From Verrucomicrobiota bacterium (GTDB lineage Bacteria; Verrucomicrobiota; Verrucomicrobiia; Limisphaerales; UBA1319): a stretch of DNA of 35,035 nucleotides. Positions 25,810 through 34,509 of the stretch are shown piece after piece (within the stretch, counting starts at the first letter, position 1; the number at the start of each line of letters is the position of its first letter). The notes beneath the pieces are model-generated. The model did not search any database. It was not told where the DNA came from and saw nothing but the letters and a program-made list of their open reading frames with translations. The position numbers and the translations under genes are program-made. The stretch spans positions 1 to 35,035 of the forward strand of contig JAKLHY010000073.1 in the NCBI GenBank assembly GCA_022709905.1, given 5' to 3'.

Positions 25810-26393
25810 ATTTTGATCCTTTCCCGGGGTCTTTCCGAAGCCGGCAAACCATGCCAAGCCAAACAAGGATCAGCCCCCCCCCAGAGGTGGAAAGAGTCAA
25901 GCCTCTCATTATTCCATCTTAAAACTTTGCTATTCAATAAGTTGCTTATGATTTCTCCACCAAATCAGCACCCTCCCCTTTCTACAAGCGGGCTCTGCCA
26001 AAGGACTGCGGGAAACGATATCGCGTCATTGCCTTTCTATCGGCATCCGAGGGGTCTGGCTTAAGCAGAAACTCGAAAAACCATCCATCATGGACCGCTG
26101 GAAAACCTGGACATGAGGCAACCCTGGGGTCATCATCGACGCCCTAGAATCATCGGGCAGTGGTCCTACGACCCTAAGTGGATGTTTTGGAGGCGGCAGT
26201 CTCGATAAGGCCGGAAGAGGTTGTGGCGATCACGATTACAAAGGAAAGCTCGGTCTGTAGGAGCCAGGGCGTTACCGATCCTTGTATTAATAAACGCGAT
26301 AGCTAAGCCGACCACACGGGTATGTCCCCGTCGAAGGCTTGGCCTGGATGCCGTCGAGCATCGGATTTGGGCTTTAAAATGCGGGGGGATGGC

Positions 26394-27158
26394 ATGCAAG
26401 TTTTTGAGGAAATCTGGACCGCGTCGATGGCACTGTGGAATCTACCGTTCACAGTGATGCTGCTCGTCGTGTTGTTTTACTGGGGGTTCGTGCTCCTGGG
26501 GATTTTCGATCTGCATACGGGTGACGCCAGCCTCGAGGTCGAAACGGGAATGGACGGGGCAGCGGACGCGGATGTCTCCGCAGACGCTGATATCTCTTCG
26601 GACGCCAGCGTCGAGGGCGGGGCCGAAGCGCACGGACCGGGAGATGCCGACGTTCATGCGGATGGAATGGGGGCCGAGAGTGGCGGTTGGCTCCACAGCA
26701 CCGGGGATTTTCTCCATGTGGGAGCCATGCCGGTCATGGTGCCCCTCAGTTTGCTGACCCTTTGCTTGTGGACCCTGGGAGTCGTTTCCACCCATTACTT
26801 GAATCCGGCGGGGCACTGGGGACTGGCCCTGGCGCTCACGGGGGGAAATCTGGTTTTGAGTGCCGTGCTGACGCGGTATCTGGGATGGCCCTTGCGCTGG
26901 CTGTTTACCGCCCTCAACAAGGACTATGACAGCATCGGGCCCCTTGTCGGCCAGATTTGCCGGGTCACCACCGGAGAAGTCACCCCCAAGTTCGGCCAGG
27001 CCACCCTCGAAACCCGTGGATCTCCCCTCACCCTGAATGTTCGCACCACCGGCGATGAGGTGCTCCACCGAGGCGATGAGGCCCTGGTGATTCAACACGA
27101 CAAGAAAACGGACAGCTACCGAATCACGCGCTTTAAAAACCTAAAACTGGAGGAATAA
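26394..27158 (+). CDS. NfeD-like / YqiJ-family membrane protein (N-terminal TM helices, acidic Asp/Ala-rich linker, C-terminal OB-fold-like domain)
   Basis: TM helices then a D/A/S-rich low-complexity loop, two more TM helices and a ~90-aa C-terminal beta-rich domain (…VTTGEVTPKFGQATLETRGSPLTLNVRTTGDEVLHRGDEALVI…), as in the YqiJ partners of YqiK flotillins. The ATG at 26394 is preferred over the longer 26322 ORF. The stop lies 5 nt before the flotillin ATG. Confidence 0.6.
   Translation: MQVFEEIWTASMALWNLPFTVMLLVVLFYWGFVLLGIFDLHTGDASLEVETGMDGAADADVSADADISSDASVEGGAEAHGPGDADVHADGMGAESGGWLHSTGDFLHVGAMPVMVPLSLLTLCLWTLGVVSTHYLNPAGHWGLALALTGGNLVLSAVLTRYLGWPLRWLFTALNKDYDSIGPLVGQICRVTTGEVTPKFGQATLETRGSPLTLNVRTTGDEVLHRGDEALVIQHDKKTDSYRITRFKNLKLEE
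27149..27154 (+). promoter_or_regulatory. Shine-Dalgarno GGAGGA 8 nt upstream of the flotillin ATG (inside the yqiJ-like 3' end)
   Basis: Read directly (ctGGAGGAataaacttATG). Confidence 0.5.
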
Positions 27159-27162
27159 ACTT

Positions 27163-29232
27163 ATGCTCGCGGTATCGACTTTTGGAAATGTTCTCATCAC
27201 GTTCCTTGCCCTGATCGGGGCGGTGGTAGCGGCAGGAATCGCCGTGCTCGTGGTCCGTTGTTATCGCAAAGTGGAACAGGGCCAGGCCTTGGTGCGAACG
27301 GGCCAGGGCGGCACCAAAGTCGCTTTCTCCGGCATGCTGGTCTTCCCCGTCATCCACAAGGCCGAATACATCAACATCTCCGTCCACCGGATCGAGATCG
27401 ACCGGCGCGGGACCGCCGGACTGATCTGCAAGGACAACTTGCGGGCCGACATCACGGTGGCGTTTTTTGTCCGGATCAACAAGACCGAAAACGACGTCCT
27501 CAAAGTGGCCCAATCCATCGGCTGTCAGCGCGCCTCCAACCGCGAGGCCATTGTGGAGCTGTTCGACGCCAAGTTCTCCGAAGCCCTCAAGACCGTCGGC
27601 CGGCGCTTTGATTTTGTGGAGCTCTACAATTCCCGCGAGGAATTCCGGGATACCATCATCAAAATCATCGGCACCGATCTCAATGGTTTCGTTCTGGAGG
27701 ACGTCGCGATCGATTACCTCGAGCAAACCAGCCTCGATCATTTGAATCCAAATAACATCCTGGATGCCGAGGGCATCAAAAAGATCACCGACCTCACCGC
27801 GACCCAGGCCAAACTGGCCAACCAAATTACTCGGGAAAAGGAAAAGGTGATCACTCAGCAAAATGTCGAAACCCAGGAAAAAATCCTCGAGCTCAACCGG
27901 CAGCTCGCCGAGGCCACCGAAAAACAAAAACGCGAGGTGGCCACCATCAAGGCTCGGGAAGAAGCCGAGGCCCGCAAGGTCGAGTTCGAACAGAAACTCC
28001 GCTCCGAACAGGCCCGCATCTCGACCGAGGAGGAAGTCCTGGTGGCGGAAGAGAACAAGAATCGCCAGATCATCGTCGCCCGCAAAAACAAGGAACGCAC
28101 CGAAGCCGTCGAAATCGAGCGCGTGGAAAAAGACCGCCTGCTCGAAGCCAATGAACGCGAACGCGTGGTCTCTCTGGCCCAAATTGAAAAAACCAAGGCC
28201 GTCGAAATCGAACAAAAGAAAATCCAGGACGTCATCCGCGAGCGTGTCATGGTCGAGAAAACCGTCGTGCAGGAACGCGAGCGGATTAAGGATACCGAGG
28301 CCTTCGCCGCCGCGGACCGGCAGAAAAAGGTGATTGTTACCAAGGCCGAAATGGAGGCAGAAGAAGGCCTGGTCAAGGAAATCAAGTCCGCCGAAGCCCA
28401 CAAAAAGGCGATCGAATTAACCGCCGAAGCCGAAAAATTCCGCCTGGTCAAACAGGCGGAAGCCGCAAAATCCTCCGCCGAAATCCACGCCGAGGAAACC
28501 ATCATCAAGGCCCAGGCGGGTCTGAAATCCGCCGAACTCGACGCCACCGCCAAGAAAACCCTCGCCCAGGCCATCACAGCCGAAACGGCCGCCCCCGGAC
28601 TCGGCGAAGCCCAAGTCCAGGAGGCCAAGGCCCAGGCCCTCGAAAAACAAGGCACGACCGAGGCCAAAATCATGCAGCTCAAGTTCCAGTCCGAAGCCGA
28701 TGGCATCAAACAAAAGGCCGAATCCATGAAACTCCTCGACGGGGTCGGACGCGATCACGAGGAATTCAAACTGCGCCTCAACAAAGAACGCGACGTCGAG
28801 CTCGCCTCCATCCAGATTCAAAAGGACATCGCCTCCAGCCAGGCCCTCGTGGTCAGCGAGGCCCTGCGCCACTCCCGAATCGATATTGTCGGCGGCGACG
28901 CGGCCTTCTTCGACAAGATCGTGGGCGCCATCAGCGCGGGCAAAGCGGTGGACCGGCTCCTGGACAACAGCCAGGCGCTCTCGGATATCAAACAAACCCT
29001 GTTCAACGGCAATCCCGACCAGTTCCGTCAGCAATTGAAATCCTGGATCTCCCAGTTTGGTCTGACCACGGAAGATCTCAAGAACCTGACCCTGGCCGCC
29101 GCCCTGACTCGCATGATGACCCTGAACACCGAGCCGAAGACCAAAGGCCTTCTGAATCGCCTGCTCGAATGGGCGCAACAACAAGGATTACACAACCAAA
29201 AGGTCAGCCAGTTCCTCGAAACCCAATCCTGA
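27163..29232 (+). CDS. Flotillin-family (SPFH/band-7) protein, YqiK-like, with a long Glu/Ala/Lys-rich coiled-coil
   Basis: N-terminal TM helix, SPFH core (…QALVRTGQGGTKVAFSGMLVFPVIHKAEYINISVHRIEIDRRG…DNLRADITVAFFVRIN…), an extended EA-repeat coiled coil and a flotillin C-terminal region. 689 aa. Confidence 0.85.
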   Translation: MLAVSTFGNVLITFLALIGAVVAAGIAVLVVRCYRKVEQGQALVRTGQGGTKVAFSGMLVFPVIHKAEYINISVHRIEIDRRGTAGLICKDNLRADITVAFFVRINKTENDVLKVAQSIGCQRASNREAIVELFDAKFSEALKTVGRRFDFVELYNSREEFRDTIIKIIGTDLNGFVLEDVAIDYLEQTSLDHLNPNNILDAEGIKKITDLTATQAKLANQITREKEKVITQQNVETQEKILELNRQLAEATEKQKREVATIKAREEAEARKVEFEQKLRSEQARISTEEEVLVAEENKNRQIIVARKNKERTEAVEIERVEKDRLLEANERERVVSLAQIEKTKAVEIEQKKIQDVIRERVMVEKTVVQERERIKDTEAFAAADRQKKVIVTKAEMEAEEGLVKEIKSAEAHKKAIELTAEAEKFRLVKQAEAAKSSAEIHAEETIIKAQAGLKSAELDATAKKTLAQAITAETAAPGLGEAQVQEAKAQALEKQGTTEAKIMQLKFQSEADGIKQKAESMKLLDGVGRDHEEFKLRLNKERDVELASIQIQKDIASSQALVVSEALRHSRIDIVGGDAAFFDKIVGAISAGKAVDRLLDNSQALSDIKQTLFNGNPDQFRQQLKSWISQFGLTTEDLKNLTLAAALTRMMTLNTEPKTKGLLNRLLEWAQQQGLHNQKVSQFLETQS

Positions 29233-29295
29233 ATTCCCCCAGGCTCATGCGATTCCGGCCGGTCGCACCCCGACCGGATCCAGCCTGATCCCTGA

Positions 29296-32200
29296 ATGGC
29301 TACCGATCTCTCAACCCAGCCGCCCCAGCCCGATCCGGCGGGCGGCGCCTCCGCCGCTCCCGGCCCCGTGGTTCTCGATCAGGGAACCTATGAGGTCCTC
29401 CGTCAACGCCTGCAACGACGACAACAGGAACTCAAAGAAAAGCTCCAGCAGCTTAATGCCGCCCGCAAACAGGTTTTCGGCACTCTCGAGTCCACCCTGG
29501 TCGCCACCGAGCACATCACCACCCCCAACAATTGCACGGCCTCGGACCTGGTGGCGGTCGGAGCCAATCGGTTTTTGTTTGGCTTCAACGTGTTCATCGG
29601 GCTCAAATCGCAAACGACTGTTAGGGACGTGTTTGCGGCTTACGAAAAACGCGACCACACCTTTTCGCCGCTTCCCCTCGACCTGATCGCCCACCGCGAT
29701 TTCGAAACCGATTTCCGCGAATTATACCGCTATTACAAGAATCCCACCTTCGTCAAGTTCTCGATCCAAGGACCTCGTCTGTTCATGCTGTTTCGCGTGG
29801 GCCAAAACGAGACCGACATCAAGACCTTCCAATGGCTGATCCAGGCCGACCAACTCCTCTACCAGGGCCACCGCGGGGATCATGAACTCCGAACGCCCCC
29901 CCAGCATGAGTTCGAGTGGAAACGAACCCACCGCGACTTTCACCGCGGCGGGAAATACCCCCACATCTCCATCGAGGATCGCGTCTTCGTCGAAACCATC
30001 GGCGGCGATCTGACGGTGAAAGTGGAGGACAACACGGAAACCGGCACCGGCATCTACTCCGAAACCGTCGAACACCGCGACCAAACCCTGGACGACGCCG
30101 AGGTGTTCTACAGCATCCTCGGACACCTGGTTCTCCTCAAAATCCGCCCCTACCAGGAGGATCGCTTTCGTTATCTGGTCTTCAACGGAAAACTCCAGCA
30201 GGTCCAGCGCATCGATGCCATCGAAGACGCCTGTGTGCTGCTTCCCCACGATCAAGGCATCATTTTTTCCAACGGATATTACCTCCAACTCGGCGAGTTC
30301 AAGCAGTTTCCCACCGGTCTGGCCCACATGGTCTTTGAACAACGGCTGGCCGCGCCCAACGGAGAGGATCACCTGTTTGTTTTCTACAACCGCCGGGAGG
30401 GCTTATACGTCTTGATGTCTTACAACATCATCACCCAAAAAATCGAGTCCCCCATCCTCTGCAACGGATACTGCCTTTTTCCGAATGGTGAAATGGCGCT
30501 GTTCCGCGCCGGCCACGAACCTCAAAAACACCACGCCCTGCAAATCTGGCACACTCCCTATCTGCACCCCGATTTCACCCTGGCCGCAACGCAAAAGAAG
30601 GACGATTTCCTCTTCAAACTCGGCAATGCCACCCTCGTCAATTGCATGTCCGAATGCCATGAACTCCTCGCCTTGCTCGAAAAAGAGGATTCCTACGGCG
30701 ATCTCTACGTCGACGTCGTCAAGGCCAGCTCCGAGGTGATGGACACTTACTTCTGGCTGGACCGTTCCGAGGCCTTCCACTTGCGCGCCACCCTCGAGGC
30801 GATCCGCGAGACCGCAACAGCCGCAATTGCCGAATTTGAAAAAGTCCGCAGGCTCAAACGCCAGGCCCAATCCGAATTCAACCGGATCGCGCAACAAGCC
30901 CGGGACCAACTGGAAACCGCGGCTCACGGACCCTTCAGCCATATCGATGACTATGTGCGCTGCCTCGGCCGTTTGCGCGGGCTCCGCGGTGAACTGGTCG
31001 GGCTTAAGGATGTCCGTTACATCGACATCGCCGGCGTGGAACAGCTGGAATCCGAAATCACCAGCCGCCAGGAGGTCCTTTCCCGCCAGTGCGTCGAGTT
31101 CCTCCTGGGCGACGAGGCCCTGGCCCCCTTCCAAGCCCGCGTCCGCCAGCACGAGGCCCGTCTCGCCGGCCTGGACAAAGTGGCTCTCGTCCGCCAGGAA
31201 GAACAGGCCGTCCAGCAAACCGCCGGCGAACTCGAGATGCTGATTGAGACCGTCAGCAATCTCAAGATCGATGATCCCACTCAGACCACCCGGATCATCG
31301 ATGGTATTTCGTCGGTCTACGCCCTCCTGAATCAGGTCCGCCACGCCCTCAAACGCCGGCGCCAGGAACTCCAAACCGTGGAGGGCGCCGCCCAGTTCAC
31401 CGCCCAGTTGCGCCTGGTCGAACAAAGCGTGGCCAATTACCTCGAAATCTGCGACACCCCCGAGCGATGCGAGGAATACCTCAACAAAGTCATGGTCCAG
31501 GTCGAGGAACTCGAGGGCCAATGCGCCGATCTCGAAGACTTTCTTCTCAAACTGGCTGAAAAACGGGAGGAGATCTACTCGGCGTTCGAGAGCCGGAAAC
31601 TCGCTCTGGTGGAGTCTCGAGGCCGCCGGGCCCAGGCGCTCATGGCCGCCGCCGACCGCATCTTCCAGGGTCTCCATCACCGCGTATCGCGATTTGAATC
31701 CGTCGCCGAAATCCACGGCTATTTTGCGTCCGACCTCATGGTCGACCGAGTTCGCGCCCTGGTGCGGCAACTGGCCGAGCTGAACGAAAACGTCAAGGCC
31801 GACGATCTCCAAACCCGCCTGAAGACCCTGCGCGAAGAGGCGGTGCGCCAGTTGAAGGATCGCCAGGAACTCTTTGTGCGCGGCCAGCCGATCATCCAAC
31901 TCGGCAAACACCGCTTCACGGTCAATACCCAGAAACTCGAGCTCACGGTCGTCCCGCGAGACCCGGATCTCTGTTTTCATCTCACCAGCACGGCGTTTTT
32001 CGAGACCATCACCGATCCCGAGCTCCTTTCCACCCGCCCGGTTTGGACCCAGGAACTCGTCTCGGAAACCCGAGATCTCTACCGGGCCGAATACCTGGCC
32101 TACCAGGCCCTCCGAGCTCTGGAAACCGCAACGGCCGAACCGACCGCTCCGCAAGCAGCCGCATGGTCCGACGCCGAATGTTTGGCCTTTGTCCAGCAGT

Positions 32201-34509
32201 TTCAATCCGGACGATATGCCGAAGGCTATGTCAAAGGTTTGCACGACCAGGATGCCGCGCGCATCTTGCGATGCCTCCTGAGCATGCGGCTGACCGCCGG
32301 AATGCTTCGCTATTCTCCCGCCTCGCGCGCTTGTGCCACCGTGTTTTGGCATTGCCAGAAACCTCAACTGCCGCTCCTGGCCGCTCATCTGAAGGGTCTC
32401 CGTGTCCGCCGGGAATTGTTTCCCCAACCATCCGCGCACCCCCCCTGCATCCAGGAACTCCAACAACACCTGGATGAGTTCATCCGCCAAACCGGGCTGT
32501 TCGATCCCACTGTCTCCCAGGAGGCCGCGGAATACCTGTTCTACGAACTCACCAGCCGCACACAATTCGTCATAAGCCGCGAAGCCACCCGGCTTTACCG
32601 GTCTCTTCAGGAACATCTGGCCCAAACCCATTCCTCGAACCGTTTGGAGGACTTGCTCCAGGCCGTCGCCACAGATCCCCTCAAAGCGATGCAACTCCTC
32701 CGGGATTGGATCACGGGATTCCTGCAAATCCAGGAGATGCCCGGATCCGAGGCTTTCATCGATGAAACCGCATCCCTGCTGCTTCGCCGCGGATTTGATC
32801 CCGGCGCGGTGGCCGACGCCAGCTTCCAGGCCACCTTGACCGGCATGGCCGGAACCCACCCCCTACTCGTCAACCAGAACTACGAGCTCAATTACCACGC
32901 GTTCCTTGCCCGTCTCCAACGCCACGAACGTGAAATCGTTCCCCTGTTCCGCCACTGGCAGGAACGCAAGGCGATCCTGCTCGAGAAAAAACGCCAAGCC
33001 CTCCGGCTCGAATCCTTCGAGCCGCGTGTCCTGAGCTCTTTTGTCCGCAACCGGTTGATCGATCGCGTCTACCTGCCGCTGATCGGCGACAACCTGGCCA
33101 AACAAATCGGCGTCGCCGGCGAGGAAACCCGCACCGATCGCATGGGACTGCTGCTTCTAGTCTCCCCGCCGGGCTACGGCAAGACCACCCTCATGGAATA
33201 CGTCGCCAGCCGCCTCGGCCTGACTTTCATCAAGATCAACGGCCCCGCCCTGGGCGCCCAGGTCACAGCCTTCGATCCCGCCGAAGTCCGCCAAGCCACG
33301 GCCCGCGAAGAACTCCGCCGCCTGAATCTGGCTTTCGAAATGGGCGATAACCTCATGATCTATGTCGATGACATCCAGCATTGTCATCCGGAGTTCCTTC
33401 AAAAGTTCATCTCGCTCTGCGACGCCCAACGCCGCGTCGAAGGAGTCTATGAAGGCCAGGCCCGCACCTACGACCTTCGGGGCCGCAAAATCGCCGTCGT
33501 CATGGCCGGCAATCCCTACACGGAAAGCGGCGAGAAATTCAAAGTCCCCGACATGCTGACCAACCGGGCCGATACCTACAACCTCGGCGATATCATCGCC
33601 GACGCGGAGGATGCCTTCAAAGAGAGTTACCTCGAAAACGCCCTGACCTCCAACCCCGTCCTCAACCGCCTCGCCAGCCGCAGCCAAAAGGATGCCCAGG
33701 CCGTGATCCAACTCGCGGGCGGTTCCCCCCGCGATGCGGTCGATTTCGAGGGCGCCTACTCCGTTCTGGAGCTCAACGACTTCGTCGCCGTCATGCGGAA
33801 GTTGATCCGCATCCGCGATGTCGTCCTGCGGATCAACCAGGAATACATTCGGTCCGCCGCCCAGACCGAGGCCTACCGCACCGAGCCCCCTTTCAAGCTC
33901 CAAGGATCGTATCGCAACATGAACCGCCTGGCCGAACGCGTCCTGCCAGTCATGAACGACGATGAGATCCAAGCCCTGATTCTGGATCACTACCAGAACG
34001 AAGCTCAAACTCTCGCCAGCGGGGCGGAAGCCAATCTTCTCAAATTTAAGGAAATCCTGGGGCTCCTGTCCCCCGCCGAAACCGAGCGGTGGAAAGAAAT
34101 CCAACGCACGTTCCAACGCAACCTGTTGTTCCACGAGGCCGGCGCACACGATCCTGTCGGCCGCATCGTCGCCCAATTGGCCGCCTTTTCCGAAGGCCTC
34201 GAATCCATCCGCTCCGCCCTGGCCAAACGCCCCCAGCCCGATCACCCCCCCGCCCATCCGGAGTTCCATGCGCCAACGATCCCGCAGTTGGACAAGCTGG
34301 CTCTGGAACTTGAGTCCCTCCGAAACACCATCTCGTCAGCCCTCCAGAAACAGACGCAACAACCTCTGTTCCGCCTCCAGGATCCCTCCCGCAAGGCCGA
34401 TTACGAAATCACCCAGGTCACCCAGGATACCCTCCGGAAAATCTGGGCGGTCATCGAAGAAGATCGGTCAGCGTCCCAAACGCCCCCCCCGGCTCCGCCC
34501 CGCGAATAG
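29296..34509 (+). CDS. Giant (1737 aa) multidomain protein: N-terminal ~470-aa beta-rich domain, ~800-aa coiled-coil region, and a single C-terminal MoxR/AAA_5-type AAA+ ATPase module
   Basis: Uninterrupted 5.2-kb ORF with a codon-usage-consistent composition. Walker A LLLLVSPPGYGKTTL (nt ~33160-33190). Walker B/AAA_5-like NLMIYVDDIQHCHPEFLQKFISL (nt ~33350-33420). Sensor-1 region RKIAVVMAGNPY and Arg-finger-like DMLTNRADTY. The middle region is heptad-rich (EAIRETATAAIAEFEKVRRLKRQAQSEF… through …LKTLREEAVRQLKDRQEL). The Pro-rich C-terminus contains a C8 tract. Confidence 0.8.
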   Translation: MATDLSTQPPQPDPAGGASAAPGPVVLDQGTYEVLRQRLQRRQQELKEKLQQLNAARKQVFGTLESTLVATEHITTPNNCTASDLVAVGANRFLFGFNVFIGLKSQTTVRDVFAAYEKRDHTFSPLPLDLIAHRDFETDFRELYRYYKNPTFVKFSIQGPRLFMLFRVGQNETDIKTFQWLIQADQLLYQGHRGDHELRTPPQHEFEWKRTHRDFHRGGKYPHISIEDRVFVETIGGDLTVKVEDNTETGTGIYSETVEHRDQTLDDAEVFYSILGHLVLLKIRPYQEDRFRYLVFNGKLQQVQRIDAIEDACVLLPHDQGIIFSNGYYLQLGEFKQFPTGLAHMVFEQRLAAPNGEDHLFVFYNRREGLYVLMSYNIITQKIESPILCNGYCLFPNGEMALFRAGHEPQKHHALQIWHTPYLHPDFTLAATQKKDDFLFKLGNATLVNCMSECHELLALLEKEDSYGDLYVDVVKASSEVMDTYFWLDRSEAFHLRATLEAIRETATAAIAEFEKVRRLKRQAQSEFNRIAQQARDQLETAAHGPFSHIDDYVRCLGRLRGLRGELVGLKDVRYIDIAGVEQLESEITSRQEVLSRQCVEFLLGDEALAPFQARVRQHEARLAGLDKVALVRQEEQAVQQTAGELEMLIETVSNLKIDDPTQTTRIIDGISSVYALLNQVRHALKRRRQELQTVEGAAQFTAQLRLVEQSVANYLEICDTPERCEEYLNKVMVQVEELEGQCADLEDFLLKLAEKREEIYSAFESRKLALVESRGRRAQALMAAADRIFQGLHHRVSRFESVAEIHGYFASDLMVDRVRALVRQLAELNENVKADDLQTRLKTLREEAVRQLKDRQELFVRGQPIIQLGKHRFTVNTQKLELTVVPRDPDLCFHLTSTAFFETITDPELLSTRPVWTQELVSETRDLYRAEYLAYQALRALETATAEPTAPQAAAWSDAECLAFVQQFQSGRYAEGYVKGLHDQDAARILRCLLSMRLTAGMLRYSPASRACATVFWHCQKPQLPLLAAHLKGLRVRRELFPQPSAHPPCIQELQQHLDEFIRQTGLFDPTVSQEAAEYLFYELTSRTQFVISREATRLYRSLQEHLAQTHSSNRLEDLLQAVATDPLKAMQLLRDWITGFLQIQEMPGSEAFIDETASLLLRRGFDPGAVADASFQATLTGMAGTHPLLVNQNYELNYHAFLARLQRHEREIVPLFRHWQERKAILLEKKRQALRLESFEPRVLSSFVRNRLIDRVYLPLIGDNLAKQIGVAGEETRTDRMGLLLLVSPPGYGKTTLMEYVASRLGLTFIKINGPALGAQVTAFDPAEVRQATAREELRRLNLAFEMGDNLMIYVDDIQHCHPEFLQKFISLCDAQRRVEGVYEGQARTYDLRGRKIAVVMAGNPYTESGEKFKVPDMLTNRADTYNLGDIIADAEDAFKESYLENALTSNPVLNRLASRSQKDAQAVIQLAGGSPRDAVDFEGAYSVLELNDFVAVMRKLIRIRDVVLRINQEYIRSAAQTEAYRTEPPFKLQGSYRNMNRLAERVLPVMNDDEIQALILDHYQNEAQTLASGAEANLLKFKEILGLLSPAETERWKEIQRTFQRNLLFHEAGAHDPVGRIVAQLAAFSEGLESIRSALAKRPQPDHPPAHPEFHAPTIPQLDKLALELESLRNTISSALQKQTQQPLFRLQDPSRKADYEITQVTQDTLRKIWAVIEEDRSASQTPPPAPPRE

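Follow-up and report, generated by a model that had tools for sequence, protein, structure and literature searches.

A new copy of a known flotillin-AAA+ ATPase system, proposed to act in membrane stress, in a Verrucomicrobiota bacterium

Results

Organisation of the locus

We analysed a window of 35,035 nucleotides from a Verrucomicrobiota bacterium (assembly GCA_022709905.1, contig JAKLHY010000073.1, positions 1 to 35,035 of the forward strand). Open reading frame calls place three co-directional genes, referred to here as A, B and C, at 26394-34509 on the plus strand, in surroundings of housekeeping genes (pgk, tpiA, secG). The features of the locus are as follows.

26108..26136, plus strand: sigma-70-like site, TGGACA-17-CATCAT (9/12), a weak candidate promoter
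26394..27158, plus strand: gene A, 254 aa, YqiJ/DUF1449 (NfeD-like) inner-membrane protein
27149..27154, plus strand: Shine-Dalgarno sequence of gene B, GGAGGA, read from the sequence
27163..29232, plus strand: gene B, 689 aa, flotillin/YqiK-family SPFH protein
29233..29295, plus strand: B-C spacer with a small hairpin, CCGGTCG-cacc-CGACCGG, without a T run
29296..34509, plus strand: gene C, 1737 aa, DUF3686 family, predicted cytoplasmic, without a TM segment
34482..34523, plus strand: imperfect GC-rich hairpin followed by TTTTTT, beginning just 5' of the C stop codon

The longest reading frame for gene A spans 26322-27158, and public gene callers start it at 26394, which yields the 254-aa product. 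A preliminary description of this DNA had reported three tightly linked co-directional genes, and we confirmed both the reading frames and their coordinates. The gap between the stop codon of A and the ATG of B measures 4 nt. The Shine-Dalgarno sequence that it saw embedded in the upstream gene lies within the last codons of A, 8 nt 5' of the B ATG, and the A/B junction carries computationally identified signals of translational coupling. The B-C gap is exactly 63 nt, as had been stated. A site scan called no promoter-like or terminator-like site between the three genes on the plus strand. The only sigma-70-like site upstream of gene A is that at 26108..26136; since the region holds three such sites and shuffled sequences are expected to hold 2.1 +/- 1.9, this site is no evidence of function. 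As for the terminator proposed after gene C, the imperfect stem and the T6 run are present, but the hairpin (-19.4 kcal/mol, z = -0.1) is no better than shuffled sequence and the terminator scan did not call it; it is a possible terminator. The next called gene downstream is a 70-aa reading frame on the opposite strand. Taken together, the arrangement supports A-B-C as an operon-like unit.

Proteins A and B resemble YqiJ and YqiK

Neither A nor B has a match in Pfam, NCBIfam or PADLOC, the Band_7, Flot and YqiJ models all scoring below threshold (E 3.4 for A against YqiJ_N). Profile-profile comparison was more informative. The A family profile aligns with E. coli YqiJ at an hhalign probability of 96% (E 2.8e-9), at an identity of only about 20%, and the best PDB match, the NfeD domain of YuaF (2k14), is not significant (E 0.2). 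From its N terminus, protein A has a TM helix, an acidic loop rich in D/E, and one further TM helix or two (predicted segments: residues 19-37 and 114-132); an OB-like beta domain forms the C-terminal part. Its homologues are named in the sources as DUF1449, OB-fold or NfeD-like C-terminal proteins. The profile comparison shows A to be a homologue of YqiJ, in line with the initial reading of the gene.

For B, comparison of its family profile with E. coli YqiK gave an hhalign probability of 100% (E 8e-43, 397 columns), in an alignment that spans the TM segment, the SPFH domain and the coiled coil, including the Band_7 region of YqiK, which itself scores as Band_7 plus Flot. An N-terminal TM anchor (10-28) and an SPFH domain (about 35-200) are followed by some 320 residues of coiled coil with a high content of Ala, Glu and Lys; the C-terminal end is a family-specific helical region. 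In the AF2 model, helices extend over 202-570 with low confidence and the SPFH region is poorly modelled. Relatives are named 'flotillin family protein' or 'YqiK' at NCBI and JGI. The profile evidence bears out the earlier naming of B as a flotillin and shows it to be a YqiK homologue among the flotillin-family SPFH proteins.

Domain architecture of the giant ATPase

Protein C belongs to a family that is not well characterised, and its Pfam matches are DUF3686, DUF7902, AAA_5 and AAA. No TM segment is predicted. Its regions are distributed as follows.

29428..30753, plus strand: DUF3686, residues 45-486 (Pfam E 1.6e-175)
30607..31875, plus strand: helical rod, residues 438-860, long coiled-coil or spectrin-like bundles
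31114..31368, plus strand: DUF7902, residues 607-691, within the helical rod
31891..32784, plus strand: residues 866-1163, a small beta unit (866-904), then a conserved all-helical domain (930-1163)
33151..33528, plus strand: AAA+ core, residues 1286-1411, with AAA_5 and PF00004 matches

About 1,240 residues lie N-terminal to the AAA+ module. They begin with a helix (31-61) and an all-beta domain (67-419), modelled by AF2 as a beta-propeller of about seven blades and 26-27 strands (pLDDT around 85-93); propeller and helical rod were modelled at pLDDT 81. Foldseek matches the propeller, with a probability of about 1.0, to Elp1, acylaminoacyl peptidase, Ycf48, prolyl oligopeptidases, CyRPA and DDB1. 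Residues 866-1163 had no specific structural relative.

The AAA+ core contains a Walker A motif (SPPGYGKTT, 1290-1298), a Walker B motif (IYVDD, with D1358 and D1359) and a sensor-1 asparagine (N1406), and a conserved arginine (R1424) lies just downstream of it. All these residues are invariant in 73 full-length homologues. AAA_5 gives the best full-core Pfam match (32.9 bits, profile positions 2-127 of 139), which agrees with the initial view of C as a large coiled-coil AAA+ protein of AAA_5 type. PF00004 reaches 30.9 bits over profile positions 1-67 of 131 and, because both models score similarly, C was assigned to neither clade. Sequence matches in the PDB (VCP, Cdc48, RuvB) are confined to the Walker A region. 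No obvious aromatic pore loop follows beta-2, where the sequence reads INGPALGxxVT, and Walker B ends in DD rather than DE. Threading of polymers in the manner of Vps4 is hence doubtful; the ATPase may use another mechanism, like ATPases of the MoxR type.

The triad in other genomes

Comparative genomics had been proposed as a check on the neighbourhood, and it showed the three genes to be conserved across unrelated genomes, with the order A-B-C strictly kept between phyla. In 61 of the 64 loci with enough upstream DNA (95%), the gene immediately upstream of C, in the same orientation, is a B homologue; the other three have C without B, and A was detected in 51 of 59. This linkage of B and C is far beyond chance. 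The loci belong to seven phyla (Planctomycetota, Verrucomicrobiota, Bacteroidota, Desulfobacterota, Clostridia, Omnitrophota and Kiritimatiellota), and records from a plasmid collection add three more, for at least ten. The latter yielded C-family matches in Pseudomonas (plasmid pQBR103), Streptomyces, Proteus and Deinococcus, with A-B-C or B-C order seen in the Pseudomonas, Streptomyces and Proteus records that were checked. The genes flanking the triad differ between loci and are non-syntenic. As the C family is neither well characterised nor next to a flotillin gene in this genome only, the refutation envisaged in the preliminary description does not apply.

In two settings the triad forms part of PspA (phage-shock/ESCRT-III) operons. 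In 15-17 Bacteroidota loci, CesT_Tir, PspA, A, B and C follow one another, with an XRE/S24 regulator gene divergently oriented upstream, and on pQBR103 the order is YjfI, PspA, rhomboid, DUF2491, DUF350, DUF1190, GSP-synthase-like, A, B and C. No PspA, CesT or divergent XRE/S24 regulator gene is present in our window, so that the Psp link is here an analogy with other phyla.

Discussion

The module had been put forward as novel, but exactly this operon was described by Ravi et al. (mSystems 2024, PMC11237479; bioRxiv 2020), including a PspA-less "abbreviated" form. Their full operon encodes CesT/Tir, PspA, YqiJ/YuaF, a Band-7/flotillin protein and a beta-propeller/coiled-coil AAA+ ATPase, as in the Dokdonia donghaensis neighbourhood of ANH61663.1, and abbreviated operons with the flotillin and YqiJ/YuaF proteins, sometimes with the AAA+ ATPase, are reported as widespread. 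The same three proteins occur in our window in the same order and orientation, without the CesT/Tir-PspA pair and the divergent regulator; the Bacteroidota loci reproduce the full form. The window hence holds a new copy of a known system with a proposed role in membrane stress. The published description is one paragraph of comparative genomics, without experiments, and gives an independent account with the same functional prediction as ours; our literature search found no experimental work on members of the A, B or C families. Links of SPFH proteins with PspA and with ESCRT are also noted in PMC10936438 and PMC8581546.

We consider it reasonably probable that the locus is an abbreviated form of this conserved membrane-stress operon, lacking PspA and CesT, whose ATPase would remodel flotillin and/or PspA assemblies. 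Several known systems offer partial parallels. E. coli yqiJ-yqiK and B. subtilis yuaF-floT likewise have a YqiJ/NfeD-like gene directly upstream of one for a TM-anchored SPFH/flotillin protein. However, an ATPase gene is missing from the E. coli locus, where small-RNA and toxin genes come after yqiK, B is longer than YqiK (689 versus 553 aa), and its C-terminal third is not detectably a Pfam Flot domain. HflK/HflC form an SPFH cage around the AAA+ machine FtsH, a functional pairing at the inner membrane that resembles the one proposed here for B and C. FtsH, on the other hand, is a membrane-anchored AAA protease of the classic clade and is not encoded with hflKC, whereas C is soluble, lacks a protease domain, is four times as large and carries a propeller and a rod. 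As in ESCRT-III/Vps4 and in PspA with AAA+ partners, the ATPase gene is coupled to a membrane-remodelling polymer, the triad lying in PspA operons in two phyla, and in archaea, too, SPFH genes are found with Vps4/ESCRT-III loci (PMC10936438). C nevertheless lacks the MIT domain and the pore loop of Vps4, and is not homologous to PspF.

The MoxR/AAA_5 ATPases (RavA-ViaA, CbbQ-CbbO, NorQ-NorD) bear both on mechanism and on a competing reading. The AAA_5 profile covers nearly the whole C core, and the run DDIQH...AGNPYTExGxxFxxPDMLxNRAD appears to resemble the MoxR pattern, DEINR...ATQNPxExEGTYxLPEAQLDRF. Unlike MoxR systems, C has no VWA-domain partner in its conserved neighbourhood; it is also extended N-terminally by about 1,240 residues, its Walker B reads DD and PF00004 scores nearly as well. 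ATPases of this type are typically maturation chaperones, and propellers commonly bind substrates or adaptors. The module might then serve membrane-protein quality control: B would corral damaged or unfolded membrane proteins, a role modelled on proposals for staphylococcal FloA and HflK/C-FtsH, and C, as a Cdc48-like or MoxR-like extractase or chaperone, would act on such clients and not on flotillin or PspA polymers. The Walker A region of C is most like VCP/Cdc48 in PDB sequence searches, Ravi et al. [quoted passage not shown] But conserved neighbours of C are limited to A and B, joined in some phyla by PspA and CesT: the operon provides no protease or unfoldase partner and no VWA protein, and C has no aromatic pore loop. 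We regard this explanation as less probable than a remodelling of flotillin or PspA assemblies.

A role in anti-phage defence or abortive infection, in which the flotillin/ATPase module would sense infection and collapse the membrane or otherwise block the phage, had also been suggested; our results make it very improbable. Large coiled-coil NTPases with membrane partners are common in defence systems, and a few copies of the C family are found on megaplasmids. The PADLOC matches of C (LmuB, mad8, IetA) are weak, concern single proteins and are limited to its coiled coil or P-loop; A and B gave no such match, and no system was matched. Moreover, the triad has no copy among 50,697 phage records, the housekeeping context shows no adjoining defence genes, and its recurrent linkage is to PspA stress operons. 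The proteins are 45-60% identical between phyla and form only 708 clusters at 50% identity, a slow evolution that is unlike that of typical defence genes. Finally, that C is a DNA-repair ATPase incidentally next to a flotillin gene, as its usual database names ('ATPase involved in DNA repair', 'DNA repair ATPase', in Pfam and NCBI annotation) and weak RuvB_N matches would have it, is scarcely credible, because the latter span only some 50 residues at Walker A and lie well under the curated cut-offs, domain and structure searches of C detected no DNA-binding, nuclease or helicase domain, the adjacency to B is 95% conserved across phyla, and we found no paper tying the family to DNA repair. A resemblance of its coiled coil to SMC/SbcC-type proteins is the likeliest origin of the name (compare the LmuB match).

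As first suggested for this locus, a flotillin scaffold might organise a mechanochemical ATPase that repairs or remodels membranes, and such a role fits the PspA linkage. Under this membrane-stress reading, the N-terminal TM helix would anchor B, most of which would lie in the cytoplasm; like other SPFH proteins, B would build a cage or cap, together with A, at the inner face of the membrane. C would oligomerise through its AAA+ module, its long helical rods and propeller reaching the flotillin and/or PspA assembly, and would spend ATP on assembling, remodelling or recycling these polymers where the membrane is damaged, in functional analogy to the action of Vps4 on ESCRT-III. The copy described here would work by itself or together with a PspA encoded elsewhere in the genome.

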